Part shown: positions 32,014 through 61,899 of the stretch, in pieces
Layout: each line of letters begins with the position of its first letter
How positions within the stretch are numbered: position 1 is the first letter of the stretch
Origin: Phoronis australis
Lineage: Eukaryota; Animalia; Phoronida
Assembly (NCBI GenBank): GCA_002633005.1
Contig: NMRA01000376.1
Location: 87,414-151,413, forward strand
Length of the DNA stretch: 64,000 bases
Direction of reading: 5' to 3'
Made by a program: the position numbers and the translations under genes
The notes under the pieces: generated by a model
What the model saw: the letters and a program-made list of their open reading frames with translations, nothing else
The model's database searches: none
What the model was told of the DNA's origin: nothing

Positions 32014-32124
32014 CAGCGGCGGATCCCTGCATCTCTACATTTTAAGCTGGGTGTGTGCATGTGGCGAAATTCTGGTTATTCCTGTGTCCTGGCCGCCCTA
32101 ACTCAAAATCCTGGACCCGCCCTG
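32014..32124. mobile_element. CAG..CTG MITE family copy (short), 5-bp TSD ccacc
   Basis: cagcggcggatcc...ggacccgccctg; shares gcgaaattctggttattcctgtg..actcaaaatcctgga with other copies. Confidence 0.8.
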
Positions 32125-33247
32125 CCACCTACGCACCTGCTGCGGTTAAGTGTCGGTACAAGGGCCAACCACTGTGGCTTTACATGAGAGTGTATACAGG
32201 TTATTGTTTTTGAGAATATTTCAAACAATTTTATAATTTATCAGTTTCAGCTTGAAGCGAATAACATCTTTAAAATTTGACGACTTGTCATGTCCACCGT
32301 TTAACGATGTGACAGCCGGTATGCAGCCGACTAGGAAAATGTGAGTATTTCACATGACGAACAGCGCCATCATTGTTGAATATTTAAATCATGAATTGAC
32401 CTCTTTTACATGAAAAGGTTATCACGTGAGTTTGAAAAATCTCGTGGATTCAAAAACGGCGCCTTGCACTGGCATCCGAATTTTACCGCAGCTTATAAAA
32501 AGTTGGAGGGGAAATTTGGACACTCAATTTTTATCATATCATGCTTTTTTGTATGTTTTTTAATTAAAATTAACACAGAAAACAGGATATCCATGCATTA
32601 GGCGTCTTGTAAATCCAAATGCAATTGCACGTCAAGCAGTCATGTGATCTAAATATAACTTGTAAATGGCAGTGTACCTACTGCAGACTTTCAAGATCGC
32701 GAAGAGAAGCAGACGTCAAATCGAGGAATGGTGATGAGCATGCATCAAATGTCCTGAAACCTTGTTGCAATTCAAAGATACATAATAAAAAAAATCATAC
32801 TATTGTTAAATGAAACGAGGAAGCTTTTCATTTATAAGAAAGGGTGGGTATAGGTGGTGATTTATTTGACATTCATTTAGATTCGTCCGAATTTTACTGC
32901 TGTCCGAGTTTCCCCAAACTACCCCTACCCACTTTTTTACTTTCGATGTATCCTAGAGGTAGGCTATATGCACTTTCATCATCAGATATTAAGACTACTA
33001 ACAGGGCAACTCGCAGGAGCAACCACAATTCCGTTCAGCACACCCATGCCAGAACAAACGCCTACAAATTGGACAAGACAAGGTATGTTTTACTTTCTTT
33101 CAAGCTAACATCTCTGCCTGGTAGATGGAAATAAGCTCAATGTTTTGTGCACGTTTGAGTCCGGTCACGTGAAATCATCTGATACTTGCACCGAAGCTCA
33201 TCCTCTATTCTCATATCCATCAATCACCTTAATAAGTTCAAACCAAC

Positions 33248-33304
33248 CTGCAATTCGCGATATTCTGCAGCAACATACTCTGCACTCCATCTCACCGCCG
33301 CCAT
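33248..33304 (-). CDS. WDR59: WDR59 exon 1 (MAAVRWSAEYVAAEYRELQ)
   Basis: caacATGG start context, donor CAG/gttggt, resembles the WDR59 N-terminus MAARWSSE...FRDSQ. Confidence 0.9.
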
Positions 33305-33409
33305 GTTGCTCTCTAACCCCACCTACCGGTACGAAACCTCATCCCTGATGCAGCCGCGAAAGACCGTAGTGCCCTAAGGGGAGGGAGGTAGGGAGGTAGG
33401 GACTTTTAC

Positions 33410-34560
33410 ATTAAGTTATAATAATACAATGATTATACAATTCGATTTCAGTTAGGAGGCCTTGAAAGGTTATTGACCGCTAACAAGAAGGTCCCCTAGT
33501 GTACGAAATAAATAAATGGAAATGCAAAAATCAGACTGAGGAATATGTGAGGAAGCCATATATATAACATACTTAACAAAACAAAGTGTCGAATTAGCGC
33601 TGAAAACGACCGACACGCCAGGAACCAAAAAGTGGACTGGCACATCTCAGGAGATTTTGGGCCCGGGAATACAATTAGATACTGTTACATATGAAGCAAT
33701 CGGATATATGACAAACTGGATCGTAGTTGCTAATAATAAAATTGGTTAAGAACTTGAATGCTGGCAAAGAATGTTTTTATTATCGTGATTTATAGCAGAA
33801 ACTGGTATTTCGTTGTTGTTTATAAGTCGAGGAATTTCAAATTTAATACAGGCTCTTGATGACAATTTGTTGGACGGAGGAATTAAAATTTTGGGTTGTA
33901 TTGTCGGAATAGCAGCTGAGTATTGATTCAGGTATGTAGGAGTTTTAATGTGTCTGGTTGGTTTATGTTGGATGGGTTTACTAAAGAAGTTGTTAGTGTA
34001 AAAATATTTAGAAAGCTGATTATTGAGGAATTTGTAGTAAAATTTTGCAGTTGAGATTTTAAAGATGTCTTGAAGTAGAGAGAGGCGAAGTTCCTTACAT
34101 ATGGGCAGAGAGTGAGTATTATAACTGGAATTTGATATATTCCGAAGGATCCTCTTCTGGGCTGTCTGGAGCTGCCAAAACCCCAAGTTGCAATGCCATA
34201 GTTTAAATGTCAGTGGGAGGACAAATGAATTATATATTAACTTGAGAGCTGGAAGAGGAAGATAAGTTTTCAATTTATATAAGAGTCCACCGAGATTGTT
34301 CAGTTTGTTTGAGATGAGGTTTATGTGGGGCGACCAGGGGTTTTTGTCAACGGTAATACCAAGGAAAAGAAAACTGTTTTCATGACATATGGTTTTGCTA
34401 TTTATATAAATGGTGGGAATAATACATTTTTCAATTTTCTTTTGAGGGTAGTGGAAGATCATTAATTTACTTTTTGATGTGTTAATTGAAAGTTTGTTCA
34501 CGGAAAACCAGTCTGAAATAGATTTAAGGTTGTTGTTGATGGTGGTTGATTGCTTTAAAG
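33410..34560 (-). mobile_element. 5'-truncated CR1/L2-type LINE (RT C-terminal part and 3' UTR)
   Basis: ORF 33746..34609: WFSVNKLSINTSKSKLMIF, FLGITVD, W..HI..ISNKL, LKLIYNSFVLP, LQTAQKRILRNI; the first ~16 residues of the ORF come from the adjacent MITE. Confidence 0.88.
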
Positions 34561-34567
34561 TGTTTGG

Positions 34568-34761
34568 CACTAGCATATGCGGGGCTCGGGAGGCGAATGC
34601 ACAATGCATAGGCCTTGAATAAACCCTTTTTTAGTGATAAGGTCCACAAACCCAAAAATTCGAGACCCCCTACATCCCCACATTTTAAGCTGGGCGCTTA
34701 AGGCGAAATTCTGCTTATTCCTGTGCCTCCCCCCCAACTCAAAATCCTAGATCTGCCCCTG
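34568..34761. mobile_element. CAG..CTG MITE family copy (truncated)
   Basis: strong similarity to 39685-39895. Confidence 0.75.
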
Positions 34762-35541
34762 GTACGCAAGTCTAAATTCCAGAAAAAACGTCTATTTTAC
34801 CTCAATCTGATACCTCCGGTCACTAAAGTCGAATACTTGATAGGGCATTGCAATATATCACATGTAGAAATTTCCAAATCTGATTTCTAAAAGTCAATGT
34901 GAAAACTGAGGACCAATTCACCTAATCGTAATTTATGTATATGAGGCGAGGTCCTGTTGGTGCACTGATGACTTGCCACGTCAGTACAGTTGAAGCACTG
35001 ATGTCTCGATCTAGCGATACCGTAGACATATGTCAACCTCTGAGTGACTCTTCCTACTGAAACAATATCTACACTGGTCGGAGTTGCTTAGTTTTAGTAC
35101 AGAGCTGTAGGCCTACATGCCAGTGCGCCTACTTACGCAATAATGTGCCGTTTTCATCAAAGCAGTTGTTTGCTCGGTTCGAAGTCAGTTGTCCTTACAG
35201 TGGACACGGCTAGGCAGCAACCATTTGTTAGCGTTTGTAAAGTATATAAGTCGCTGTATAATGTATTTCTGTGCATTTCTTAATTACTTCTGGATGTTTC
35301 AGTAGTGAGATAATCACCCAGTCTTTGTACCGTCTTCTAAGATTTAAAATATACTTTAAGTCTAACATTTTGCAACGGATAATGCAAGATACATTCACAT
35401 AATATACAATATATATGCTCCTTAGTTTTACTCAATTATTTATGTAGCTCTGCGTTCCTAATTCCAGATACAGACACAGTCGCATGGGCCTGATCGATAG
35501 GCAATTAACATATGGTACTTTTAGTCATACCTCCAACAGCC

Positions 35542-36703
35542 TTAAATGTAATCAAAATAATGTTTTTGATAGCACCACAAAAAGTGTCTACAATATTGGC
35601 GTCATCGTCAGATTGCATGATGTCTTTGGAGAGGCCATCAAAGAGATCCTTGTCATAACGTTCCGCTGCAACAACGTTGTTACGAGCGCTGGTCGCCTCT
35701 GAAAAAACAATGTACAATACCCACGAGAAAGCAACACCAAATCCCGCGCGCCTACGAAATTGCTCAACCAAGAGCTCGTACGTGAAACAACTGGGGACTC
35801 TCACACCCGCAATGTTGACAACGCTGACAAATTTGGCGCAGTAATCTCGGAGAACTGTATCCAGATATTGCCTACGAAACGCTTCAGTTGTGCTCATGAA
35901 AATCATGGTAACCAAATCCACTGCAGGCGATCCCTTCCTCACCATCTGTAAGTCGATGAATTTGAAGTCGGTCACAATTTTACTTCCTTGCAAAGAGTTG
36001 GCATATTTGAAAAGCATATTTCCACTGAGGCCTGAAATCTCGGTGATATAGCACGTTGAACTTGGAATCAGGTGCAAAGGCTAGCTCGCTCATATATTCC
36101 AGATACATCCATCGACTGATGCTTGTCGAGAACACAATGCATGTCTTTGTTGCTGATTTTATTTCGTACAACGTTGAGGCAAACATCAAAGTTGAACTTG
36201 ACTGGCTTTTTGAATATTCTCATCATCGGACCATGCAGGGGCGTATCTCTCCTGAAAGAGAGCCTCGTAATCAGTTCTAAGATTATTAACCGAGCCCTGA
36301 CCTAAGGCCAAGGAGAGCGCGTGGAATGTGGCCAGTCCTTCGACAGCAAGTTTGCAATGCTCCTTATCAAATTTGCCGTCTAACGTGGTGACAGAAAAGC
36401 CTTGTGTGGAGAGATCCTCCAGAGCCATGAATTAAACCCCATCACTTTGACTTTTGATAAGAGAAGGAGCCGGGACCCTTACGGATTGCGTTTTCGAGAA
36501 TTTCTCCATCGCACATATGAGCTTTGCATAAGAAATTTCTTCTTTTTCACGAAGCATTTACCGTAACTCATTTTCAGTTGCATTGTCCATATGGCAATCG
36601 TCTCGTTGTACAACAATTTTGAGAATCACTGAGCGCTGTTTAGTTTCGCCCTCTGTTGATACACTTGCAGTGACACCTCGGACCTTGGTGATGATGTCTT
36701 GTA
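35542..36703 (-). pseudogene. EcKL/CHK-like kinase catalytic exon A (disrupted)
   Basis: paralogous to 41300-42450 over its length; acceptor atttcag/ at 36704; in-frame TAA at 36558-36560 and near 36433; frameshifts near 36230, 36030 and 35560. Confidence 0.9.
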
Positions 36704-36929
36704 CTGAAATGGTAAAGTGAAAATGTTTGCAGAACACCATTTCAAAAATGAATAAAAGTTTAAAGCCCGTGTCACAGTTTTCTTTTATTAAAATGGCATT
36801 AAACCCGTGCTTTCTGCTTGGAGTTAGGACATTTACGGTTATAGAATTGATCACTTTTTGAGACATTTATTCAGTCATACTCACAGACTTTATAAAAAGG
36901 CGGTAAAATTGAATTGGTATAAGTACGAT

Positions 36930-37188
36930 CAAGCGCGCACCCAGGGGTGGGGGCTGGGGGGGAGGGTCGAACGAGTCCCCTAATTTGGCCAAGTGGGCAA
37001 AAAAGTCCACCTCCGAGAAATAAAAACTCCGAAAAAAGTACAAAACGAGACAAAAGTTCACTAAAACGGCAGGAACTACCTAAATTCGGCGAATGCACAA
37101 TTCATAGCTCTGAACGTTCCCCATGAATCTTAAGGTCCACATTTTCAAATATTCGAGCCCCCCATTTTTAGGCTGGGTGCGCGCATGA
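36930..37188. mobile_element. Diverged MITE family copy
   Basis: gcgaatgcacaat...aaggtccac...ttcgagccccc...ttttaggctgggtgcgcgcatg shared with 39587-39895. Confidence 0.6.
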
Positions 37189-38241
37189 CGAACAATGTTA
37201 ATTTTATCTGCTTCCCCAGTCACTCACATTCCCTTACAATTGGGGATCATTTTGGAGAATATATCCTGAATTTTGTAATACTCAAATATTTCTGTTTTAA
37301 GTAAATTGAAACGTGACAAATACGTGGTAAATCTGGCGATTTATATGATACTAGCCTAAAGTTATCATTTAATTACAAAAATTTTGGTCCTGCGAATGTC
37401 CTGAAGAGCTACATGTATATCCTTCAAAATATAAGTTAAGGATAAATTACAGTAACTCTTTGACCTTGCCTTGTTTCTTACTCAGTTGAGAAGTGGTCTC
37501 TAGGATCAAGAAGAAGTGACAGATTGTTATTTCTTCAGAACAAACCAATAAAACTTCAGATTAGTTCTTTCTAAGCACGAAATCAGGCCAACGAATCATA
37601 CACCAAATATAATCGTGGTGGCGATTTGCCTTCCCAAGCTTCTACATGAGAAAGAAAAACTGAAATAGATTGGTCTCAATGGAGGTTATCATGCAAGAAT
37701 CACATGAAGTAACGTTAATTGTTGTTAGTCTTCCTTTGAGATTGAAGTTTGGCGTTTAAATTCAAGTCTATTGGAAGAAATAGCACCCTTTGTTTAGACC
37801 AGTCCTGTTATCGTCTGTGGGAAAACAATGTTTTCACAAGAGCATTCTCAAATTTTCATTATTTCTTTTTGGTACAGTAGATGCTTACAAAAATGCTGCA
37901 TTTTCGATTTTGCGCCAATAATTAATACATACTGAACATTACTTACATTCTAAGTGACGTCAACCTAGGGTAAAGGTTAACTAAAGCGTCCGTGATCGCG
38001 TCATCTTGAACACAAGGGGTTCCCTAACCGTGGTGCCACTGACGGTGCCTGACATTGTCAGTACATGCGACTTCGTAATGACGTACACTTTGATCACCAA
38101 CGTCAACTGATTCTCTCAAACATGACATCCAATGAAACTCAAGCCAGGTTGAAGCGCAATTTGAGGCTAAAAATACCAAGGCACGATACCAGCGGCCAAA
38201 GGTCATTGCAGTCTTATTTACAAACGGTACAAACAGTACAC

Positions 38242-39389
38242 TTAAATGTCAACAAAGTAATGCCCCTCAACTGCTTCCTGAAAAGTTTGCACGATATCGT
38301 CGTCGTCACCAGCATGCAAAATATCCTTACACAATTGTTCAAATATTTCTCTGTCGTAGCGATCTGCCGCTGCTATACTGCCACGTGCTGTTGTTTGCGA
38401 AAACACCATGTACATAATCCAAGAATAAACGACACCGAAGCCCGCTCTTTCGCGAAAGTGTTGCAGCAGCATATCGAAAGTAAAACAGTCGGGCACTGCT
38501 ACGTCAGCTCTATGAAGAATGTCGATGAACTTGGAGAAGTAGTCATGGAGAATCTTATCAAGATATTGCCGCCGAAAGGCAGCAGTCGTGCTAGTGAATA
38601 GCATGGCGACTAAATCAACGGCAGGCGATCCAACTGTGACGATTTGTAGGTCGATGAATTTAAAGTCTGATACAACCTTTTTTCCTACCGCAGTGTCAGC
38701 GTACTTAAACATCATGTTCCCAGGCTTGAAATCTCGGTGACACACCACGTTGAACGTGGAATCTGGAGCAAAAGCTCTCTCAAACAAATTTGACGCGTCC
38801 TTACATTCAAGCTTGTCAATGAACTCAAGCATCTTTTTCTCACTGATTTTCGTGCGAAGCACTTTCAAGCAGACATCCAAGTTGAATCTGGCGGCATTTT
38901 TCATCGCGTTCGTCATGGGTCCCGGAGCGTCTCTTTCCAGAAACAAGATTTCATAATCATTTCGTAAATTTTCAACCGAACCCCGACCCAGTGCTACAGA
39001 CAGGGCGTGGAACGTTGCCAGTCCTTCAACAACGAGTTTGCAATGATCGTAATCTAATTTATCGTCATAAGATGTCACTCTGAATCCTTGCGCGGTGAGG
39101 TCTCCTAGTAAAATAAATTTGGTTCCCTCGCTTTCGCTCTTGATAAGCGAGGGTGCCGGAACATTAAGGAAACCACCTCCTCTAGTTACAATCTTCTCCA
39201 TTGCTGGTATGAGTAGAGTATATGAAAGTTCCTCTTTTTCAAATAGCAACATTTCTCTCACCAGTTTCTCGTCCACGTGACAATCTTCTCTATTTTGAAC
39301 TACTTTCACAACCATTGAGTACTGTTTCGTGTCACCCGCTTCAACCACGGTGGCGGTGATGCCACGAACTTTCGTTATGTAGTCTTTTT
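38242..39389 (-). CDS. EcKL/CHK-like kinase catalytic exon B (intact; 424 aa if joined to exon 45519-45645)
   Basis: acceptor tgcaatttcag/ phase 1; motifs VVK, LFEKE, LGDLTAQGF, LATFHALS, VCHRDFKPGNMMF, FIDLQ, GSPAVDL. Confidence 0.9.
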
Positions 39390-39586
39390 CTGAAATTGCA
39401 TAGCAGACTTATATTGTGTCAAGAGTACATGTCCGCAGTGACTCAAACATTCTCAAGTTTACGGAGAATAAGTGACAAAGAATTAACATTCACGAGCATT
39501 ACACTTCCTCGTATGTTAACAAAATAACACGATGCGTTACGTGACCAACCTAGGATCGTCTTATGAGGCCAGACAAGTCACTAAGC

Positions 39587-39895
39587 CAGTGGCGGATTTA
39601 GGGGGAGGGGGGCAAGGGGGCCATGGCCCCCCCTAAAATTCTCCCAGATTCCATTTGGCAGTTTGGGGTGTGACTGATTTGCTGACTAGCATATGCGCGC
39701 ACCCAGGAGGGCTCGGGGGGTGAATGCACAATGCACAGGCCTTGAACAAACCCCGTTTTTAGTAATAAGGTCAACAAACCCAAAAATTCGAGACCCCCTA
39801 CATCCCTACATTTTAGACTGGGCGCGCGCATGAGGCGAAATTCTGGTTATTGCTGTACCCTGACCCCCCAACTCAAAATCCTGGATCCGACACTG
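39587..39895. mobile_element. CAG..CTG MITE family copy (full length)
   Basis: TIRs cagtggcggatt / ggatccgacactg; flanks taagc / taaac. Confidence 0.85.
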
Positions 39896-39945
39896 TAAAC
39901 CACTATTTTTATTGATTCATTTTCATCATAATGGTTATTCTTTCT

Positions 39946-41178
39946 CACACACTAATCGTTTGGGCTAGGACCAAAATATTAATCTCAAAAATGTTATGGA
40001 AGTAGTTTCTGATCTTGGGAAGAACTCTCGAATTTAAGCATTTTAGATGTAAATCTACACGTAACGCAGGCCCCAAGCTTAAGTGTGAACAAATTTGTGA
40101 CTTGGTACAAGTGCTGTTTGTGAACTGCACGCCCAGAATTGAGCGATGACACTTGGGACTTCTAACAGCTGGTTCACGACTCTTGGAAATTTACCCACTA
40201 TTATATGTTGTGCGCCCAGCAGAATTAAGCAGAATACTGGCTGTGGACTGCTTTCAAGTTTAAGGTTATAAAAGTCATATCTCATGTCGGGTTTTCAAAA
40301 TTCAAAAACCTAACCGTGTGTACGTTTCACGCACTATTAAAATAACTACTACTTAAAATCTTTGAAATTGAAAGTTTAAAAAATACTTAATTGTCAACTC
40401 TCCAGTGTTTGCAACCATGTCTACTTAAATTAATCTCCACAGAACGACAACATCATCTAAAAGCCGGATGTGTTTTTGAAGAAGGTGGCGGATATTAAAG
40501 TTAGCGAACCGACAGAGTTGCCCAAACTCGATGGGTGATGGTGTCAGCGTAGAATGCTTNTTCTGACACACTAATCGTTTGTCTAGGACCAAAATATTAA
40601 TCTCAAAAATGTTATGGAAGTAGTTTCTGAGCTTGGGAAGAACTCTCGAATTTAAGCATTTTAGATGTAAATCTACACGTATCGCAGGCCCCAAGCTTAA
40701 GTGTGAACAAATTTGTGACTTGGTACAAGTGCTGTTTGTGAACTGCACGCCCAGAATTTAGCGATGACACTTGTGACTTCTAACAGCTGTTTCACGACTC
40801 TTGGAAATTTACCCACTATGTTGTGCGCCCAGCAGAATTAAGCAGAATACTGGCTGTGGACTGCTTTCAAGTTTAAGGTTATAAAAGTCATATTTCATGT
40901 CGGGTTTTCAAAATTCAAAAACCTAACCGTGTGTACGTTTCACGCACTATTAAAATAACTACTACTTAAAATCTTTGAAATTGAAAGTTTAAAAAATACT
41001 TAATTGTCAACTCTCCAGTGTTTGCAACCATGTCTACTTAAATTAATCTCCACAGAACGACAACATCATCTAAAAGCCGGATGTGTTTTTTTGAAGAAGG
41101 TGGCGGATATTAAAGTTAGTGAACCGACAGAGTTGTCCAAACTCGATGAGTGATGGTGTCAGCGTAGAATTCTTTTCA
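39946..41178. repeat. ~620-bp near-identical tandem duplication
   Basis: 39946-40564 repeated at 40567-41178 with few differences; an N at 40560 sits at the junction. Confidence 0.9.
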
Positions 41179-41299
41179 TGTGGTACAACAAGTACAAATG
41201 CGACAAAACGCAGCTGGGTATTCAGAAAATGAAATATTTTGCTCACAAAAAGTACGATATTCCGCAAAAAAAGAATAGGCTTACAACGACTGAACGTTC

Positions 41300-42450
41300 T
41301 TAAATATGATCAAAATAATGCTCCTTGACAGCACCACAAAACGTTTCCACAATGTTGACGTCATCGCCAGCATTTGCGATAGCCTTGCAAAGACCATCAA
41401 AGACTTCCATGTCGTAACGTTCTGCCGCCGGAATGTTATTACGTGTGGTAGTCTTTGAAAATACTATGTACATAATCCAAGCAAAGACGACACCAAATCC
41501 CGCCCGTTTCCGGAAATGCTTGAGTAGTAACTCGTATGTGAAGCAATCCGGGACTGCCAGATCTACCATGTTGAGAACGCTGACAAATTTGGCGTAGTAA
41601 TCTCGCAGAACTTTCTCCAGATATTGCCTACGAAACGCCTCAGTCGTGCTCGTATAGATCATGGTAACAAGATCAACGGCAGGCGACCCCACTGTGACGA
41701 TTTGTAAGTCGATGAATTTAAAATCGGTTACAACCTTCCTACCTGTCTCAAGATTCACGTATTTAAACATCATGTTACCAGGTTTAAAATCTCGGTGACA
41801 CATCACGTTGAACGTGGAATCTGGGGCAAAAGCTGTCTCAAACAGTTTAGATAGGTCCATTGACTGGAGCTTTTCGAGTTCAAAACGTGCATCGTTGTCG
41901 CTGATTTTCAGTCGGACAACGTTGAGGCAAACGTCTAAGGCAAACTTGGCGGCTGCTTTGAATATTCTTATCATAGGTCCAGGCGCGTATCTCTCCAGGA
42001 AGAGAGCCTCGTATTCAGTTCTCAGATTTTCAACCGAGCCCTGACCTAACGCTAAAGATAGTGCGTGGAACGTGGCCATTCCTTCGACGGCAAGTTTGCA
42101 ATGATCGTAATCCAGTTTGTCGTCGAACGTGGTCACACAGAATCCTTGCGTAGAAAGGTCTTCCAGTAACAGGAATTTGATTCCATGAGCTCGTTCACTT
42201 TTCATAAGCGACGGAGCAGGAACGCTAACTAGAGCTCCTTGTCTATTCGAAATTCTTTCCATCGCACGTATGAGCTTATCGTACGAAATTTCTTCTTTTT
42301 GGAAAAGCATTAATTCGTCTTCCATTGCTTCATCCATATGACAGTCGTCTCTTTGAACAACGACTTTGAGAATCATTGAGCACTGTCTGATGTCGTCTGC
42401 TGTTGAGACAGTTGCGGTGACACCCCGCACTTTAGTGATGACGTCTTGCT
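41300..42450 (-). CDS. EcKL/CHK-like kinase catalytic exon C (intact; 425 aa if joined to exon 45519-45645)
   Basis: acceptor ccattttcag/ phase 1; ILK, LFQKE, LEDLSTQGF, MATFHALS, MCHRDFKPGNMMF, FIDLQ, GSPAVDL. Confidence 0.92.
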
Positions 42451-42787
42451 CTGAAAATGGTTCAGTGAAACGCTGTACGGAACACTCATTTCCTAAAGAT
42501 AAATCTAAATCTTAAGTGTGCAATGAAGCGCACTTTATCGGTAGCCATTTAAAATCGCCAACCTTTTCAGATTTGAAATGTCAGGCAACCCTGTTTTCCT
42601 TTTCTCCAACACTATTACATTTAGAACATCACTTTGAGACGGCATTTTAGTGCGAGAGTTCTTTGCAATTCAAGGTACCATTCGCACGATGGTTGCGCCG
42701 GATCAAGGTTATTCGAGGCCCCAGAACGTGTGAGGGCGGGGGATCTAATCTAAGGCGGCTCGACTATAATCTCGTCTGTGGATAGAA

Positions 42788-43675
42788 ACTAGAGGTCGGC
42801 ATTCTTGGCTTTCTACGTCACAGTACTGATCTGCAATTTCAGAGATACAGCCGTAGACGCAAAAAAGCAAAACTGCCCCTAGGAGGCGCTAGAATAGCCC
42901 AAAATAGCNATCAGGAACACAGCCGTCAAATTTCATGATGATCCTTTGGGTGGTTTGACAGATAGAGAGGCAGTACAGTGATTTTAAATGGCCACCAGGC
43001 AGCGCAGAAAGCATCAATTCTGGGAAGGCGTTTCCGTCACTTTAATAGAAACCTGTTTGCCGAATTTCATGAACATGCATTAATGAACGCCGAAGATACA
43101 GAGGCAAATGTAAAAAAAAAACATTTTGCTATCAGGGGGCAAGTGGTATTTGGATCAGTTCGACACTTGTTACCGTTTGTCGTCGGCTCCATGATCAGGA
43201 CACGTCTTTCAAAGTTTTAGGCCGCAGACGCAAAAAAAACAAAATCATCACTTGAGGGCGACACAGAAGTCGATCTTGTTTAAAAATCAACATCAGTCGT
43301 GGCCTTCTCATCAGAAACACATCTGTAATTTTTCATAATGATCCTTTGAGCGTTATGGCAGATAGAAACTGACTCAAAATAACAAAAATTGGCCACAAGA
43401 TGGGGTAAAAACCGTCCGAAAATGGAATGGCATCATCACATTCTTATTAAAAACCAAATTGCCGAATTTCATGAAAATCCATCAAGGTACTCCGAAGATA
43501 CAGAGGCGGTATTCGGTCCGAAACTCGTCGTCAGCCGCATAGGACTACTCTTGCTACATTTCAATAAGATCCTGCCAGGTGTTTAGGAGATATAGCTGCG
43601 GACGACGAACGTCGGACGCCAAGACAGAGACGAAGACAATATGCTCTCAGATGTAAATATGTGGGCGCATAGAAA
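42788..43675. repeat. Probable interspersed repeat with internal degenerate subrepeats
   Basis: recurrent aatttcatga..atcc, gaagatacagaggc and gcc(g)cagacgcaaaaaa blocks; non-coding. Confidence 0.45.
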
Positions 43676-43789
43676 TGACTGCTCTAATTTCAGTAGACTC
43701 TACACAAGGTTTTTGGAGTCTTTGGTCCAGTATACTTTTCATATTTTCAGGTTTTTTGCGTCCTGTGGAAAAGATTTTGGGAACCAACA

Positions 43790-44078
43790 CAGGGTTGGAT
43801 CCAGGATTTTGAGTTAGGGGGAGGGGGTCAGAGCACAGGAATAACCAGAATTTCGGCAGATGCGAGCGCCTAGCCTAAAACGTAGGGATGCAGGGGTTTC
43901 GAATATTTAGGTTTGTGGACCTTTTGACTAAAAAAAAAAACGGTAAATGGGGTTTGTTCAGGGCCTATGCATTGTTTATTCAATCTCGAGCCCCTCTGGT
44001 TGCACACATGTGCTAGTCAGTAATTCGCGCCCGAACTGCCACATGGTATCCCTCCCCCCCCCCCTAAATCCGCCACTG
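43790..44078. mobile_element. CAG..CTG MITE family copy (inverted), 5-bp TSD caaca
   Basis: reverse complement of 39587-39895; caaca at 43785-43789 and 44079-44083. Confidence 0.85.
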
Positions 44079-45518
44079 CAACACGAACTGGTTTTCCAAG
44101 CCCAATATGGGCAAAAACTGTTGAGCGCCACCAAAATCATGTCCCATTGTATGTCTTGTCTGCATTTGATTGACTTCGCCGGTTCCGCCGGGTCAACTAA
44201 TAAGACTTTTGTTTGGTCTGTAATCCAAAATTCGCCATCTAGAATCAACCAGCTGCCTTAGCTAGTAATTGACTGGGCAGAACCGGTGAGTGATAAAGTG
44301 CAACCAGTCACTGAGCCTGTCGAATTAGGCCTGTGTGGATAGAGTGTGACATGCAGATGGAGAAATTGACCTACATGTAGTAGGCATGCATGTGTGAACA
44401 GAACGCCGAGTCTACGAACGCAGTAAGTAAAATGCCCTTACTGCAACAAACTGCTTTTTTCAAGGACACTGGGAAGAATGTTGATCAAATCATTAAACGC
44501 GATTCTGAAGAGACTCTACCGCGAGCCATACACATGTATCAGCAATTTCATAGTGGTCATGAAGAATACAACAGCCAGTGTTGGCTGTGTCCTTACTCCA
44601 GATTCAGTTACGATTAGAAGTCATATTTGCGTGGCTACGTTTACGAAAGTGAAGTTTCGGAATAAATGCGCGTTTAAATCCGATTGCATCAGCACGTCTA
44701 TATCCGAAATCATGCATTTTTTTTAAAAAATCGTAACTCAAGTGTTTTGTAAACGCACAAGCCCCTAAATTCAAGTGAGGTCCAATCCTCTCATACTAGT
44801 CGCATGTCTATAAGTGCCGTGAGTGTTGACTTGTTGCACGTTTTTGTTCGTTCTTAGTAGTTTCAAGTTAACTTGAATACACGTCCTCCACAACATGTCA
44901 AATTTCGATCAAATAATGTTTCACAGGTATCAAGCGAATAAGCCTAATTGTTGAAATAAGCGCAACTTCAATAAATGCGAATATGCCGGTGGTAGACACA
45001 TTAGAGGCTATTGCTCTGGTAAGCGGCCACACGAGCGAATACCCAACATCCTCGGTGTATCAAATTTATCCAATGCAAAAACTTTACCCGCCATATTCTG
45101 GTGTTAACAACATCAACATTTGTTCACATGCGCCATATTTCCGTTCCAAAAGATCGACATTATGTTCTCTTTACTTGCTGGCGATGACATTCAGTTGGTT
45201 TTTAATAAATCGTCTGATATTCTCTGAAAGCAATGCTGCCTTGACGTCTGAAACAAGCCCGCGGTCGTGACCGGCAACATGGTGGGCGTTAATAACGACC
45301 TGTCAGTTAATCTTAGCTTAGAACTTACTTCTTATCGAGTAAGGAACAATAACGAACAAGGAGATCGACGTGATAACAATATGCAGCATAAATCAAAAGT
45401 TGATTTTTGACAATGGGCTCGGGTTTAGTGCACGTTAAGTAACGTGTCCAAGGACAAGAATAGACCGAGCTGATAGGTCTAATAAGCAGTGCTTGTTTTA
45501 TTACACAGGGTAACATAC

Positions 45519-45645
45519 CAGCTGGTCTCAAACGTCGGAGTGTAAAATCGATGACTCGGAGATCATCTTTCGATTCGTAACGCCTCAGAATGTCTGTTAG
45601 GAAATCCTTTGTAACGAACGGGCAATCTTCGTTCGGCACGGCCAT
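45519..45645 (-). CDS. EcKL N-terminal exon (MAVPNEDCPFVTKDFLTDILRRYESKDDLRVIDFTLRRLRPA-G)
   Basis: 127 nt ending in phase-1 donor G/gtatgt; resembles the EcKL N-terminal FL..ILR......L.V..F...A..GE pattern; acceptor ctgcag one base before the ATG implies an upstream non-coding exon. Confidence 0.82.
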
Positions 45646-46165
45646 CCTGCAGAGACAAACAGATGTTGGTCGTAACGTGAGTTAGGAGCTGAACTGCAGT
45701 TGTGTAGTGAAATGGTGTGACCTGTTATCTCGCGTTTCTCGTCGTCGTGCTTGCTATCGTTGTGAGGTCATGGCTGATTTTCTGGGTCATGTCCAGCCAC
45801 CAGGTGGCGAGACCGTCTGGTGCACGTCGTGGCCGGCTCCGTCGCAGTACTGCCAACAGCGTTTTCAAATACCCGCTGGCCCATGGCCAATAGATTTGCG
45901 GCCCGGCCAGTAAACTTTCACATTCACTGTGTAGGCCTTATGTGGATGTGGTCTCAAATTCATGCAGTTTTCCTCAACAACAATAACCTCAGACTCTACA
46001 TGACTCCCAGCAATATCTAGCCCAAAGCCGATGTATCTTTAACTTTCCAAAACTTTGGGTGTAATGAATTACGGCCCTTAAGTTAGAACGTTTCCCTAGG
46101 TGCTGAAGTCATCGTTACATTATTATCTTGAGCCAAGTGTTATATTTCTCCGTAAGGACACAACC

Positions 46166-46353
46166 CAGTGCAGAATTTAGAGGGGGACCAAGGGGGCCAT
46201 GCNNNNNNNNNNNNNNNNNNNNNNNNNNNNNNNNNNNNNNNNNNNNNNNNNNNNNNNNNNNNNNNNNNNNNNNNNNNNNNNNNNNNNNNNNNNNNNNNNN
46301 NNNNNNNNNNNNNNNNNNNNNNNNNNNNNNNNNNNNNCCTGGACCCGCCCCTG
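46166..46353. mobile_element. CAG..CTG MITE family copy spanning an assembly gap (N 46203-46337)
   Basis: cagtgcagaatttagagggg...ggacccgcccctg; flanks caacc / caaca. Confidence 0.7.
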
Positions 46354-47035
46354 CAACATTTGCATGTGGTCATTTATTACCCATCAGTATAGGGGCAGCT
46401 GGGGACTTTAGATGTAATTGACCTGTGATTCTGAGTGTTTTCGGTATTACGTGATAGTTTATTCGTTAACTGCCATCAACAACATTTTTGGTGTCTCGTA
46501 TAACGCGTCCAGATATCAAGATTGTAAATTTGCAAGTGACGTGAACGCAACGACCGACGCTCGTCGTGCCGGTCATACAGGTATCAATACCGCCTTTTCA
46601 CGAAAGGCGTCGGTCCTGTCGCATGGCGACTAATAATACACACTAGTGTTGGCTTACGTAGTACTGATCAACAGTGTTCAAAAACCTGTCATAGTGTACA
46701 TCCATGTGGCGGGATCTACAACAGACAGCGACGTCTACATCAGTCATTGACTGAATGAAAAGACAAAAATTCGGTTAAATCTTTTAACAATCGCTTTGTT
46801 CCTTTATCTGCCAAATTTCCTGTCAGTTTAGTAAGATTTAGCAAAGTGGACGTTAGCGTCTATCTGGACGTTCAGTTTTTGAGTGAGCTACGAATAAATT
46901 CCAAGAACTTAGCTGATACGCCCAGCTTGTCAATAATCTTTTGGACTTCGCGACATCGCGCGAGTTGACGACGTATGGCATATCATTTTTGATTCTAAAA
47001 TACTCGTTCGTCGACGTTTGAACCTTGGTTAGCAC

Positions 47036-47118
47036 CACAGGCGCTTGGGTTTATCGCAAATGACGTCACAATATATATATATGAGTGACGTCATTTGCGA
47101 TAAACCCAAGCGCCTGTG
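47036..47118. mobile_element. 83-bp palindromic micro-MITE with 8-bp TSD
   Basis: perfect 34-bp arms, 15-bp AT spacer, gttagcac at 47028-47035 and 47119-47126. Confidence 0.9.
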
Positions 47119-49921
47119 GTTAGCACTAAAAAATTCTGTAAAGCCTCAAATAACTCACATGACGCAACAAGTGTTGCGCTAAAAAATGCTAATGATATAG
47201 TAAAAAGTAAGAGATATCATTTCTTTTACTATCTTAACATTACATTTGAAGTTTTTTTAAACCCGCCTTGCGACGTTACAAAAATAATTTTTGATTTATA
47301 CCACTTACCGTTATGAAATTATTTTCGAATTGTTCCTTCATCAAAAGTGTGAATTTTGGGCTTGGAATGAGCTGACAACTGCTTCTTCAAATAATGACGT
47401 CATTTCAAGTCATCCGCCGACCTTGGTCTAGAGAAGTCACTGGCTGTCATGCAATCCTTTGCAAGACCAAAAAATAACTTTCCATTTTAGTAAACAAACA
47501 AGTTGAATCAATTTTATAGCAGTAAATAGTCTAAAGCAGTATTTAGCTTTTTCAACGGAACGGGGTAAGGGGCGCTTTAAAATCTTGCGGGCAGATTTTT
47601 TGAGACTCTCAGGTGATGTCATTGCAACTTACTAGTTTGAGTTAATGTGCCCATTTTCTTGTTACTGAAGCTACACGTATTTGATTGCGTTGACACTGGC
47701 GGACATTCAGTGGGGATTACCCACATTCTCTTGCCGCTACATTAGTCCTCGTTCGTGTTATTTAAACAAAGCTATAAAAATACGCCTGGCTTATTGAAAA
47801 ATGTTTTTCATAACACTGACAACATTGACAGAATACCGTACTCATTACACATGACAGTCACATTGTGGACTCATAAAGCGGCTATAAACCAGACTTTCAT
47901 CTTAAAAATCAACAGATTTAGACCACTTATCATCAGAAAGTTTGCCTCTAATTGTTCCTGTAGGGACGATTTTAGGCCTTCGAAAGAACTGGCTGTTCGT
48001 TGTTGATTGACAACAAAAGTTGTCTTGTGACTTTATGCGCCAAGTATGGTTTTTACGAATAACGAACCTGTCCGTTCTTCGCAAACTCGAAATCGTTTCT
48101 CATCTGAGTAAGGCAGAAGTTGCTGAGATTAATTTTATAACTGTATGTGGCCTAAAGCAATAGTAGATCATTTCTTGGACAGAACGCGAGCTTATAGTCA
48201 CTTAAAGTGCTTTGTACTTCCGCAATAGAATCGTTTTTCTTTTTAACAATTTCAAAGTGTTTCTAAAAAATGTAGTTCCACATCTATGATATAATTAAGG
48301 TTCAAAGCAGAGTACATTCATTAAACGTCTTGCATCCTGATGCCACGTTGACAGGCTGCGTGTAGGGTATGAAAACCGAACTATACCACGGGGTGGAAAC
48401 GATTCTATATATAGCTACTTATTCAATGACTTTGGTTTCGTGGGATATAAACTCCCCTTTGAAAGCATTACCAAAATACAAATAATACTACCGGCGCAAC
48501 AAAATCTAGATCCGCCGCCGAAAATCGATGTAACTCATCCGAAGAGTATATATTTGTGCCGGAATACGAGTCCTCTATGCCTGAATCCAGAAAGACGTGC
48601 AGACTATCCTCAGCTCGGTAAGCTGGCAGTTGATTCAGACAGATGCTATGCATACTTGCTTACTCGAGCTTATGATAAAATGAAGTGATCTCGAAATATA
48701 TATATACTGCTCGTGCTGCTTAAGATGTCCGCTATTCATAACCTTTTGTGCATAAGACAAATTATGCTATTTCCCATAACAAGGCCAATTTTTCGTGGCC
48801 GGAACGGAATCAGATGTAACCACGTTCCAGCCTCCAGCGCGCAGTCGGCTTTGTACAAGCCAAAATACAGTCATTGACTGCATATTTCTAAATTCAAGTG
48901 CGGCATCAGTGGTGCGCATTTACTACCGAATAACACCAGTGCATAGTGTACGTGGACAGTGAGAGAATAAATATGTTGCCGTTACCCAGCGGACATCTCC
49001 ATGCAGTTAAAACTAAAAGATAGTTATTGAGATGACGTGACCAATCTGTGCCCTTGTTGGCAAGCCAAGTTTCGTTGCTACGTTACTCGACCAATCACGA
49101 GCCAGAATTGCTCAAAACAGTCTGATATCTCCTATGGTGTCTTAGATCAGTCGTGCTAACAATTTATGACAATTCATTGCACAAACACCTCTTTCACATG
49201 TGCCACAACCGGATGAGCGTATACGCAGTCGCGGACTTGAAGGCACACTGTTTCTCAGTTCCTTGTCAGTCTGAAGAATTCCTATAAGCACGATAAATGA
49301 AATGAATATTTGTGTTCAGCCTATTTGTAAGCAAACGATCGTAAAAATGTCATCGTTTTTTGGTTTGCCTGTGTGATGAAATGTTCATGTTGCACAATTT
49401 TATTGTTACCACCAAGGGACAAACAAATCCTTATTTTGAACAGATTTTCGTTATCACAACATCTCACGTTATCATGACCCATCTCTGCAGAGTATGTAGC
49501 ACAAAAGTTGAGGAAATTGCTGTGGCGTCGCACAATTTTAGTTCAGACATTTGTTGTATTTAGGCATTTATGTGTGAAACATTTCCCTGATAACTGTTGA
49601 GTACATTTCACTTGATGTCCAACAAATGAAAAGTATCTGTTCTAATGGAAAGGTTGTTAAGTGCAATACATTGATAACTGACGTGTTTCCTAGGACACCA
49701 GATGCAGACCTATGGTAAATACAGGATGGGCCCTACCAAGCACTTGAACATAGCTCGTGTTCATTTGCATATTTACCTGCATGTCACCAGTTTTTTATTT
49801 CTAAAAATAGAACAAAAACAAATTGATGCAGAAAGTGTGAAATATTGATTTCCATTATCATTCATAAGTATGACAATCGCTAAGTCTCCTATAATTACAA
49901 GTTAAAGAACACTCAGTTTGA

Positions 49922-50525
49922 ATGTACATCGACCTATATCAACGTTTAAATATGTACTGCATGCACATCGACTGATATCTACGTTTAAATATGTACTGCA
50001 TGCATATCGACCTATATCAACGTTTAAATTTCTACTGCATGCATATCGACTGACATCTACGTTTAAATATGTACTGCATGCATATCGACTGATATTTACG
50101 TTGAAATATGTACTGCATGCATATCGACTGATATCTACGTTTAAATAATGTACAGCATGCACATCGACTGATATCTACGTTTAAATATGTACTGCATGCA
50201 TATCGACTGATATCTACGTTTAAATAATGTACAGCATGCACATCGACTGATATATACGTTTAAATATGTACTGCATGTATATCGACTGATATCTACGTTT
50301 AAATATGTACTGCATGCATATCGACTGATATTTACGTTTTAAAATGCATTGGATACATTTCAACTTATATCTAAGTTTTAAAGATGTACTGCATGCATGT
50401 CTACCTATATCTACGTTTTAAATCTGTATTACAGGCATATCGACCTATATTTACGTTTAAAAGATTACTGCATGCACATTGACTTATATTTACGTAATAA
50501 AGATGTACTGCATGCATATCAACCT
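49922..50525. repeat. 39-40-bp minisatellite, ~15 units, degenerating rightwards
   Basis: unit atcgactgatatctacgtttaaatatgtactgcatgcat. Confidence 0.95.
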
Positions 50526-50720
50526 GTGTCCATGTTTTGCTGGGCGCAAAACTGACCAAATGGGCCAAGCTAAGAGACTCAGATATACTGATGTCTCGAA
50601 CAAATAGCAATTTTCGGTCTTCCAAGCGCAGCTGAAATCACCTCCAATCTGAGTACGGTAACTGTTTTATAAGGGTAAAACGAAATTCGTTTTTTGGCAG
50701 AAGGCGGTTTTCAACAGCTT

Positions 50721-51731
50721 TTAAAAATCAATTGCAAATTCACTGGTGACGTTTTGGTCTTCGTTTTTAGCTGAGTCATCAGGGACTTCACTTTGCTCAG
50801 TTGTACTTGATGAAAAGTTTATGGTTGACATTGGAATATTTCGAGATTTTGGGATTATTGCGCAGAACAAGATTCTGAGTTCCTTCCGGAATCTCTTTCC
50901 ACTCACGCTGTAAACGTAAAAGTTTCCCGCGTGATTCAGAGATGGGAATACGACCACTAGGTGATGCAAAGTCTGAACGACTAGTGTCCTGTTCACTTTC
51001 AACAAGAGTTCGATGAGAGAGTATGGAAGTGACGTTAGAAGGAAAAATAAAGATGCACCAATTAACATCGGAGCTGTTCCTTTTACGTTAGTTTGAAGAT
51101 TTCTGGATGCATCCAGGTCATTGTTGAACACCAAATTGTGAATAACAATGATGTTACTTCCTATAAGTATTAAACTTGGAATGACGGAGTAGAGAAACAA
51201 CCAAACCCATGACATCAGGGAGTTTACTCGAATCACCTTTCTTACCGTGACGCATCTTGTCCCTGAACTTGTTTTTGTCCAGAACACGAACGAGTTGAAC
51301 AGAAAAGACACAAGGCAGACAGTCACAATGAATGTAACGGCAACTCTCTTGCGACAGAAACGCCTGGAATGAAGAGGAAACCTCAGCGCCACCAGTCGGT
51401 CGAGTGAAAAGCCTGCGAGTATCCACGCCGAAGCCAGCCGCGAGGATTTTGTGAACCAGTACGACAACGAGCAGAATACTCCATACTTCGATAGCAATAC
51501 AGGAGCTAATATGCTTTTTTCAATATGCAAGAACAAGCTTATTTCAGCAATTGTGTCCACAGCTGTCAAACTTATCAAGAACACGTTAACTGACTTGTTC
51601 CTCTTACGACGAACAAAGACTGCTAATGCGATTAAGTTCCCTATAATACCAAGCGTTGGAATTATAAGGAAAGTGAGCGTTGACAAATATCTGATGGGGG
51701 GAATGTCTTCCTCTGTCGTGTTCGACTTCAT
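50721..51731 (-). CDS. Class A (rhodopsin-like) peptide-receptor-type GPCR, uninterrupted CDS, 336 aa
   Basis: seven hydrophobic segments; GIIGN (TM1), LTAVD (TM2), C..SLDRLVALRFP (TM3), IP (TM5), LP (TM6), NHAGNFYVY..SGKRFRKEL (TM7/helix 8); ATG at 51731 preceded by a ttttgcag acceptor. Confidence 0.93.
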   Translation of the reverse strand: MKSNTTEEDIPPIRYLSTLTFLIIPTLGIIGNLIALAVFVRRKRNKSVNVFLISLTAVDTIAEISLFLHIEKSILAPVLLSKYGVFCSLSYWFTKSSRLASAWILAGFSLDRLVALRFPLHSRRFCRKRVAVTFIVTVCLVSFLFNSFVFWTKTSSGTRCVTVRKVIRVNSLMSWVWLFLYSVIPSLILIGSNIIVIHNLVFNNDLDASRNLQTNVKGTAPMLIGASLFFLLTSLPYSLIELLLKVNRTLVVQTLHHLVVVFPSLNHAGNFYVYSVSGKRFRKELRILFCAIIPKSRNIPMSTINFSSSTTEQSEVPDDSAKNEDQNVTSEFAIDF

Positions 51732-53301
51732 TGTTGGCTGCAAAAGAAGTGAAACAGGCGGCTGACTGAACGCCTACCTTTTTAAGAAAGTAGTCACGTG
51801 ACGCGACTGCGGGGCACGACAGGATGCAACCAAAGACGTCGAAGTGTGTCTCTGGTAAATTGAAAGACTATGGAACTTTTGTCTATGTATAGATGTGTCT
51901 TTTAATTACTTCGCTATTATTTCAGTTACTTTATCTATGTTCAGTTTAGAGTAGAGTTTTGTTCAGAAGGTATGAACGTAACTTACATGTAATAAAGACT
52001 GTGAACAATGAAAAGTGTCGTGCGTTTAACCAATTCTGTGTATACAGATATATAATTTTATAATCGATTCAATAATTCTCGGATGTTCTGTTCTCGTGTT
52101 CAATACGTTCAGACATTAATTTTAATAACAAAAGTTCCAAGCGGTACTGTTTGAGATTACATTCGACAACTCACACCGTGTGTTCCATTAAATCTACCTT
52201 ATGGTCATTGCTAAACGGATATGCAGATTAGGCGTATCAAATGGAACTTAAAACTTCAGTGCCTTGAAAGCTTAGACTTCAACATTCCGCTGGCATAGGA
52301 AAATCACCTGCGACGGAATTAAAGAGGTCAATTTTAAAGGAAATTGTCGTTTTACGCCCTAAAATCATTTGGGGGATTGTTTATGGAAGGGATAGACCTT
52401 TCGTTGGCTTTGGCCAGAGCTATGAAACACTAAAATCCGTTGTGTCTTGTGACTTTATTATAAAATGCCAATTCCCATCGATATCTGTCATACATTTGGT
52501 GACTGCGTTAGGATGAATATGCTTAAAATACATTTATCGGGCGAAATTTAGCTCCTCACCAGAGCGTTTGGCTGCGAAGGTTCCTGTTTCGAATCCGCGC
52601 TGTGGCTCAGTGCAGAAAATCACTTTTCTCGCCGAGAATAGAAGACCAGCCTTGTGATTTTCTCATGAAGATTTGACTCACAAACAATGCGGTAAAGGAA
52701 ATTTCGAGATTGCTTTTAAACGTACTAGATAAGTGGCGTTGTTTTCAGAGAACATCTGAGCATCAGAAAATCAGTTTCTTGTATGTGTTTATGGTACACT
52801 ACTCAGGCTTTGTGAACAGAACGTCCAGCTATTCTCTGGCATTCTGTCTCTACCACAGTTTCCGTTTGACGAGTTAAATGAACTTTATAAATGACTTTTG
52901 TTAGCAGTGACGGACGGACCAATGATCGATCATAATCGATAAACTATCGGTTATATACCAAAGAGAAGAGCTCGAACTTTATTTTGCCAAAACCGGTCAA
53001 TTTGGCGATTGATTATCCGGAAGTGCTGTTCATACGTTTAACAGCATACTGTGAATGCAATAGCCAATAAAGCCCACTAATCAATGAATTTTTCACATTA
53101 AAAATGATAGGTAAAATCCCACACTGTGTTAATTGACCTATCGCAAGGATTATGACAGAAGGCTTAATTGAGCAATCAGAACGCATCATTCTTGACACAC
53201 CTTCGTCTGCGTTTCCAAGCCGCCATTTAACCTGACAAACCTCACGTAGTCGAGTAAAACTTACTTTAGTCTATAGCTCAAGAAATTGTGTGCGAAAAAT
53301 A

Positions 53302-54770: not shown

Positions 54771-54933
54771 ATTGGGTCACGTGACCATGTATTTTAAATA
54801 AAACTTACCAAAAAGAAAGGTACATTCACAGCACAACAACGGTATCAATATTGACTATCGATACCGTTGTTGTGCTGTGAATGTACCTTTCTTTTTGGTA
54901 AGTTTTATTTAAGACATGGTCACGTGACCCAAT
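54771..54933. repeat. ~163-bp near-perfect palindrome
   Basis: arms 54771-54846 and 54860-54933 differ only at one small indel site; 13-bp loop. Confidence 0.92.
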
Positions 54934-60900: not shown

Positions 60901-61899
60901 GAATATTCAGAGCAGCAATTCAAAAGCCAAACAAATTTCCGTGTCTGATGTTACCCAAGAGAGGTAGGCATTAAGATTAATGATGAAAAACTCAGTGACG
61001 CGTATGTACTTAATCGTGTTGATGAGCTGAAGTCAAACAAAGTTAAAGGGGACTATGATTTGACAGCCGACGTGTTGTCAGCGGAAGCTCGTTGACAATG
61101 GCAGCCATGAAGGATGGCAATCGTCGGCAGAACATGTTGAAAACAGAAAGTTTCTATCCTGATCTGAAACTCAACACTTTGATGTCTGACAATATAACGA
61201 TACTTTATGCAACGGTGTCAAAGAATTTCCACAGCCTTCTGCGTAAACTTCTTTTTGTGATCATGAAGTCAAGGTTTTGGTGTCTCACATCATAGCAGAG
61301 GAACTTAATGACAGTAATTTGAGCAAGAGCACCGGAGAATGTCGACAGGAAACTGTACAATCTTCCACTCTTGATCACACACACTCATGACTTTGATGTC
61401 TGGATGCATGGAAGTGAAAATTATTGACAACATTTCAAGCAACAACACCGAAGGAAAGCCTCAATACCCTTCTGTGCCAACTTGCTGTTTTGATTAGAAA
61501 CCAATAGTTTCGAAGTCTGACAGCCTAGAAGAGAAAGTTATTGACAATGCTCTAAGCAACGGGAAAAGAATATTCCTGCAGTTGTCTGTGCTAGCACCAA
61601 CTGTAGCGGAAGTTAAATTTACATCCGTTGCCAACAAAACTCAGGCTGTTGTGACACTGAAATATTTTGACACTATTCAGAGTGGAGAAAATGAAATGAA
61701 AGTTCATCTGCAGCAAAGAGATCGTGATCAGAGGACTCTTAGAGGTGGATTGCCTCGACCGGGAATGTTGAATGTTCAGAATAGCAGATTGGAACAATTA
61801 TTTCTGATCATTACTCGACGGAGAACCAAGAGGATAAAAGCTGTCTTGGGATATTTTTAATATGAAATTTACACACAAATCAATAAAAATTTCAAAGTA

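Follow-up and report, generated by a model that had tools for sequence, protein, structure and literature searches.

How does a locus make protein when it carries three copies of a catalytic segment and a single recognizable beginning for them? The question is raised by the EcKL kinase locus on the minus strand of a 64,000-nucleotide (nt) stretch of Phoronis australis contig NMRA01000376.1, a stretch of 39% GC that we call the window. The original prediction for this DNA held that one gene chooses among three duplicated last exons and so produces three kinases. We propose, with a probability of about three in four, that one EcKL gene splices its first coding exon (E1) to either of two alternative last exons, C or B, to make two enzymes; for C and B, last-exon choice is the reading that fits best, but the third copy, A, is not a kinase. 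We infer the sharing of E1 by C and B, at the same odds, because the N-terminus is unique, because sense RNA covers the exons while the spacers between them are nearly silent, because E1 is covered more deeply than C, and because B has been under purifying selection.

The first exon and its candidate last exons

RNA carrying the same species label, comprising three raw-read runs (X1, X2 and X3, of each of which ~18-19% was read) and one contig set (X4), was aligned to positions 34800-49800. The locus has the following parts:

45646..45676, minus strand: 5' untranslated sequence adjoining E1, read through by X4 contig 8
45519..45645, minus strand: E1, the first coding exon; 127 nt = 42 codons + 1 nt, with the EcKL N-terminal helix and strand and a phase-1 donor
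41300..42450, minus strand: exon C, intact catalytic last exon of 382 codons; PF02958, 160.6 bits
38242..39389, minus strand: exon B, intact catalytic last exon of 381 codons; PF02958, 161.8 bits; 65% protein identity to C
37963..38241, minus strand: 3' untranslated region (UTR) of B, covered by RNA to at least 37963
35542..36703, minus strand: exon A, broken transcribed copy; 76% nt identity to C
35216..35541, minus strand: 3' UTR of A, where coverage declines as it would near the end of a transcript

C, B and A are each preceded by a TTTCAG acceptor and start in phase 1 at one homologous point, and the E1 donor reads CTG/GTATGT, all of which matches the coordinates, acceptors and phases first claimed for them. 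The predicted open frames were likewise reproduced in silico, with 425 amino acids for E1 joined to C and 424 for E1 joined to B, and the intronic sequence that A and C were said to have in common was found to be ~50 nt just upstream of the acceptor. The duplicated terminal exons have their own acceptor and stop and lie in phase with one upstream exon, without a start of their own. In the 30 codons upstream of E1 there is an in-frame stop and no methionine; CTGCAG at 45646 may be an additional acceptor.

C and B begin ~40 residues into full-length EcKL homologues, and on sequence comparison no EcKL N-terminus other than E1 is present in the 64 kb. We took 72 single-domain homologues from the best 150 library hits and built a hidden Markov model (HMM) of their N-terminal part; run against the 1654 six-frame peptides of the window, it found E1 at E 7e-4, with the next best peptide at E 2. 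No copy of the 42-residue exon was found in the spacers by tblastn, whose next hit, at E 0.067, lay outside the locus, or by Smith-Waterman alignment, in which 200 control segments averaged ~26 and the spacers scored 27 and 24. The three methods agree with the earlier claim of a single first exon that has no copy in the spacers. The intron between E1 and C gave a Smith-Waterman score of 38, above all 200 null segments; a relic first exon at 43153-43118 in this intron, a 12-residue match with tblastn E 0.34 on which the HMM was silent, was considered and rejected. Beyond the window, a word-seeded protein search found no relative of C at E 1e-10 among 3528 candidates of 210-669 amino acids and no relative of E1 among proteins of 75-2000 amino acids (1 candidate), and a scan of metagenomes confirmed none of its 105 pattern matches.

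Such a locus would arise if the catalytic exon were duplicated in tandem together with its acceptor and the first exon were left behind. We hypothesize that B split first (~70% nt identity to C), that A then arose from C (76%; A and B are 65% identical), and that A was disabled later. In the choice between last exons, splicing would be coupled to polyadenylation. A transcript cleaved after C would yield E1-C, and one that reads through and skips C would yield E1-B; A would be joined to E1 itself or be included, untranslated, in a B message.

Transcription, selection and competing explanations

In most stranded libraries, first mates on the plus strand denote minus-strand (sense) RNA; they lie that way over E1, C, B and A, and coverage of these exons is sense-only in all three raw-read runs. 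Mean depth in X1/X2/X3 is 10.1/8.6/6.6 over C, 13.8/5.5/10.8 over B and 17.8/10.8/14.7 over A; E1, taken at the single position 45565, has 20/16/11, so that E1 exceeds C by factors of 2.0, 1.9 and 1.7 and stands to C and B together as 0.84, 1.13 and 0.63. By bins, sense depth is 4.8-12.5 over C, 5.4-14.1 over B and 10.8-17.8 over A (35802-36302). Repeat-free bins of the spacers and intron have a depth of 0-1.0, which means that B and A do not belong to one long, unspliced UTR of C. One contig shows the E1 donor in use: letters 1-158 of the 186 in X4 contig 8 fit 45519-45676 and end exactly at the donor, with 28 letters unplaced.

Coverage stops after the stop codon of each cassette, with clear tapering at A only. 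In X1 the depth falls from 25 at 35538 to 2 at 35293, and X4 contig 1 covers 35216-35730; at the end of the B UTR, position 37963, depth is 14/7/21 in the three runs. Two AATAAA hexamers, at 39908 and at 36866, had been put forward as polyadenylation sites. Both do exist, but sense depth collapses before each of them, to 0.5-0.9 within 40311-40811 and 0.1-0.7 within 37305-37805. Lying ~1.4 kb after C and B, and beyond the end of coverage, they are unlikely to be in use, and we reject them as working signals. The original prediction put the enzymes under a supposed single promoter; upstream of E1, sense depth over 45822-46823 (minus strand), a span crossed by a 135-N gap, is ~5-7 in X1 and X2 and 0-1.4 in X3; a second upstream start or an allele-specific 5' extension is possible there.

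The ratio of replacement to synonymous substitution rates (dN/dS) is 0.157 for B against C (dN 0.233, dS 1.49), 0.216 for A against C and 0.148 for A against B; the branch values (B ~0.13, A ~0.18) are noisy at a dS of 0.8-2.0. These ratios indicate that B is under purifying selection and, with the sense RNA over it, bear out the expectation that B, diverged yet intact, is both selected and expressed. The first ATG of B is codon 25. Codons 1-24 differ from those of C by 5/7/12 changes at the three codon positions, with 9 synonymous and 9 replacement differences. Because they precede any ATG and yet are conserved with C, B depends on a phase-1 coding exon upstream of it.

Several observations weigh against a first exon shared in this way. 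No junction read from E1 to C, B or A occurs among the 15 of 100 joints listed, all of which are in repeats; the 24 of 763 loose ends listed are likewise taken up by reads from repeats. The E1 depth was read at a single position where counts are low, and it reaches no more than 0.34-0.64 of the combined depth of A, B and C. The 500 nt that follow C, and likewise those that follow B, contain no canonical polyadenylation hexamer, and sequence could be hidden at either of two single Ns (40560 and 42909). The protein and metagenome searches yielded no locus from a relative in which conservation could be tested. Finally, nine allelic differences fall in the RNA of B, C and E1 among the 40 of 641 rows listed (5 synonymous, 4 replacement, 0 nonsense), and 3 of the 6 listed for B are replacements, which lends no support to strong present-day constraint and, taken overall, shifts the evidence neither way.

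Exon A is a transcribed pseudo-exon, and the prediction of three catalytic exons and three kinases fails on it. It has at least two stops and three internal frameshifts: the first stop, at codon 48 (36560-36558), lies within a 6-nt insertion, the second is at 36434-36432, the frameshifts are near 36237, 36091 and 36028, and a 1-nt deletion lies near 35565. Joined to E1 it yields 90 amino acids, and with these lesions it is ruled out as a functional kinase. That the lesions are purely assembly error is rejected because X4 contig 2, which comes from another study, crosses the 36237 frameshift with 0 gaps (the check applies to that lesion). The dN/dS of ~0.2 indicates that A was functional over most of its past.

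How A enters a message is less clear-cut. It may be joined directly to E1, or it may be an untranslated exon of the B message reached from a donor-like site, AAT/GTAAGT at 37946, which matches 8 of 9 consensus positions and lies just past the full-depth end of the B UTR. That A, and A alone, is an untranslated 3' exon of an upstream message strikes us as a genuine possibility, at somewhat worse than even odds. The position of the donor favors it, as do an A depth at least equal to that of B in all three runs and an E1 depth that fits C and B better than A, B and C; donors like that at 37946, however, arise 1.1 times per 500 nt by chance. The same evidence might be stretched to say that only E1-C codes for protein and that B and/or A are untranslated 3' exons of the upstream message, for example by splicing from 37946 to A. 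We consider this improbable. No donor matching at least 7 of 9 positions lies within 500 nt after the stop of C, and C and B hold only 6/9 sites in their final 300 nt. B is intact with a branch dN/dS that needs translation, and it is covered more deeply than C in two of the three runs, with the depth of C declining toward its 3' end in all three.

Alternatively, B and A could be separate genes whose own first exons are hidden at the N join at 40560 or have diverged too far to be recognized. This would suit the family, in which genes are usually stand-alone and single-domain (0.8% two-domain, mean 418 amino acids, in the available part of the EcKL survey, PMC10859841). The Ns leave room for missing sequence, and repeat-derived reads swamp 39309-40310 and 36804-37304, where a small exon could escape the depth profile. 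We nevertheless think it unlikely. An E1-like peptide is absent from either spacer by all three methods; A is 76% identical to C, so that a first exon duplicated along with it would be easily seen, and the B-A spacer (1538 nt) contains no N; and E1 is deeper than C in three of three runs. As for the N at 40560, where the original prediction allowed that a first exon might have been lost, its flanks suggest an overlapping contig join and not lost sequence, because they are near-identical direct copies:

39942..41174, strand not applicable: direct duplicate of ~620 bp flanking the single N at 40560; 600/620 columns identical (97%)

The original prediction missed another single N, at 42909 within the intron between E1 and C, which has no flanking duplicate.

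It is more doubtful still, and in our view very improbable, that B and A are orphan exons served by cryptic or repeat-borne promoters or by a trans-spliced leader, giving truncated or non-coding RNA. Repeat elements do lie 200-500 nt upstream of both acceptors, but a start at Met25 would partly remove two predicted N-lobe strands (E5-15 and E20-30 in the model of C), and codons 1-24 are conserved between B and C together with the acceptor. A multi-domain kinase made by read-through is judged unlikely, as every segment ends in a stop of its own and neither B nor A has an N-terminus.

Intronic repeats and the proposed choice of last exon

If E1 is spliced to either C or B, something must decide between them, and the introns contain candidate elements:

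43786..44078, strand not applicable: repeat element of ~290 nt in the E1-C intron, candidate docking element, in opposite orientation to the copies that lie ahead of B and A
39587..39898, strand not applicable: repeat copy, candidate selector, ~200-510 nt upstream of the B acceptor
37088..37192, strand not applicable: incomplete related repeat preceding the A acceptor

The intron repeat and the copy upstream of B are 75% identical over 269 nt in opposite orientation, and they form the only non-local inverted pair of at least 60 nt within 8 kb in the window. Their predicted duplex has a gain of -194.5 kcal/mol and 236 intermolecular pairs, where the best of 30 null segments reaches -11.3; for the A side (36940-37195) the gain is -24.5 kcal/mol. 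Predicted pairing with the intron repeat is in other words strong for B, weak for A and none for C. We tentatively suggest that the intron repeat might pair with its inverted copies at B (strongly) and A (weakly) and loop out the proximal exons, as a docking and selector switch built from transposons, but we regard this as unlikely. The repeat family is abundant in the transcriptome and has further direct copies at 34569 and 32024, and two copies are as likely as not to be in opposite orientation, both of which count against a pairing switch. Looping out of C by predicted repeat pairing would resemble the docking and selector arrangement of PGRP-LC, and the locus offers a simple test case for inverted transposon copies as splice selectors. 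In the literature that we searched on repeat-mediated pairing, no paper on a transposon-built splice selector for last exons was found.

All five detected copies of the repeat family lie within the 12 kb from 32024 to 44078, at identities of 69-85%. The four in the same orientation are spaced ~2.5-2.65 kb apart, near the exon spacing of 2686 nt (2443 nt for the other pair once the 618-bp duplicate is subtracted). The identities do not obviously fit co-duplication of the repeats with the exons.

The predicted enzymes, known designs and the rest of the window

Both intact copies score far above the gathering cut-off of 22 for Pfam EcKL (PF02958), and the N-lobe Lys and Glu and the HxD...N and DxQ motifs are all present. 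Across 74 sequences K28, D220 and N225 are invariant, and E52, H218, D247 and Q249 are kept in at least 90%. The structural model of C has a predicted local distance difference test score (pLDDT) of 89 and matches APH, choline kinase, methylthioribose (MTR) kinase and PsiK at E ~1e-5 to 1e-6 with template-modeling (TM) scores of 0.3-0.47; as modeled, C has an APH or choline-kinase-like fold. No relative with a solved structure was found by sequence search. Identity to the best 150 library hits is ~23-35%, and five of the ten hits looked up were named, four from insects and one from a crustacean. Arthropoda likewise make up most of the atlas taxa for C.

In its scores, its catalytic residues, its length of 424-425 amino acids (family mean 418) and its tandem paralogy, the locus is typical of the EcKL family. 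It departs from the family norm in the catalytic loop, which reads HRDFKPGN in both C (41770-41800, minus strand) and B (38710-38740, minus strand) in place of HGDxWxxN, with the loop Trp replaced. The catalytic loop of protein kinases has the consensus HRDxKPxN, which HRDFKPGN resembles, and B has a faint Pkinase match (E 0.065). Among the 219 HxD...N motifs in the 150 hits, Arg follows the His in 5 and Lys stands two after the Asp in 2.

Roughly 90% of the protein is encoded by the variable exon, including K28, E52, the HxD...N loop, DxQ and the whole helical substrate lobe. With the catalytic residues and the helical lobe in this exon, the C and B enzymes could differ in substrate. Substrate determinants are unestablished for nearly all EcKL members, according to the available part of the survey (PMC10859841), and E1-C and E1-B, with one N-terminus and 35% difference elsewhere, would be a clean pair for probing substrate choice. 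Many of the top library hits are 740-2200 amino acids long with 2-6 EcKL stretches. Gene prediction may have fused tandem genes, or cassettes such as those described here, into some of these, a suspicion that arises because only 0.8% of genes in the insect survey have two domains.

In UGT1A and the clustered protocadherins, alternative promoters serve variable first exons ahead of a constant 3' tail. The present locus is like them in being one locus with duplicated large exons and a constant partner exon, but here the constant exon is the first and the choice would fall at the 3' end, which lies outside the definition of that design. The parallel that the original prediction drew with them overstates the novelty of the locus, since the same orientation is already published for GSTS1, SOD3, PGRP-LC, Pip and CG42235. 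By analogy, the gene design is that of the known 3' tandem cassette, a closer match than UGT1A; it is itself well known, and the surprise is moderate.

Anopheles GSTD1, or adgst1AS1 in A. dirus, reportedly has four isoforms with ~45 N-terminal residues in common. Splicing of Anopheles GSTD1 alters substrate specificity, as cited in the part of PMC1950890 available to us, and GSTS1 and SOD3 of Anopheles gambiae have a common 5' exon with alternative 3' exons (PMC1797171, in its accessible part). The likeness to GSTS1 is close: a detoxification-type enzyme with a short constant N-terminal exon and duplicated last exons that hold the substrate-binding part. In contrast to GSTS1, the enzyme here is a kinase and not a transferase, the variable exon encodes every recognized catalytic residue, a transcribed pseudo-exon is among the copies, and the junctions are deduced. 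In Drosophila, the 3' tandem cassette clusters of PGRP-LC, Pip (10 cassettes) and CG42235 consist of duplicated terminal cassettes behind a common exon and are coupled to alternative polyadenylation (available part of PMC6191721). Our locus has the same constant 5' exon and variable 3'-terminal cassettes, but its cassettes are single exons and its candidate pairing elements are an abundant interspersed repeat (~270 nt, 75%) instead of short conserved intronic elements.

Within the family itself, the available part of the EcKL survey (PMC10859841) mentions rare alternatively spliced models and counts isoforms if alternative exons make up >25% of the coding sequence; in the part of its supplement that we could consult, all 5 matches to 'isoform' and the 1 match to 'splic' concern small N-terminal or internal differences, and no EcKL with a shared first exon is described. 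None was found in the literature searched on EcKL with splicing, in which most subscription papers were outside reach, and the accessible parts of PMC4195677, PMC4654499 and bioRxiv 2020.02.17.951962 describe no such design for GSTD1 or EcKL. If confirmed, the locus would be an explicit case of growth of the EcKL repertoire by duplication of the catalytic exon only, and gene counts and automated annotation of this detoxification-linked family would miss or fuse such isoforms. It also displays the life cycle of a cassette, with two copies live and one dead but transcribed.

Outside the kinase locus, the window contains a G-protein-coupled receptor (GPCR) sequence:

50721..51773, minus strand: intronless rhodopsin-family GPCR open reading frame, 350 amino acids from stop to stop; PF00001, 55 bits

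The nearest atlas cluster to this receptor is GPR139-like, with no clear orthologue and a mixed set of atlas taxa, and a tandem repeat with a period of ~78-97 nt lies just downstream of its stop at 49919-50537. Palindromic elements at 47034-47120, 54771-54933 and 10021-10125 are 95%, 93% and 76% self-complementary, the second lying near a single N at 54655. Degenerate retroelement-like fragments at 16048-17858 (plus strand), 33746-34630 (minus strand) and 62399-63362 (plus strand) were named by eye from the translations of their open reading frames as gag/protease/integrase-like, with two pieces resembling long interspersed nuclear elements (LINE-like). Finally, several open frames of 108-124 amino acids at 59900-61860 (minus strand) resemble exons of one further gene.

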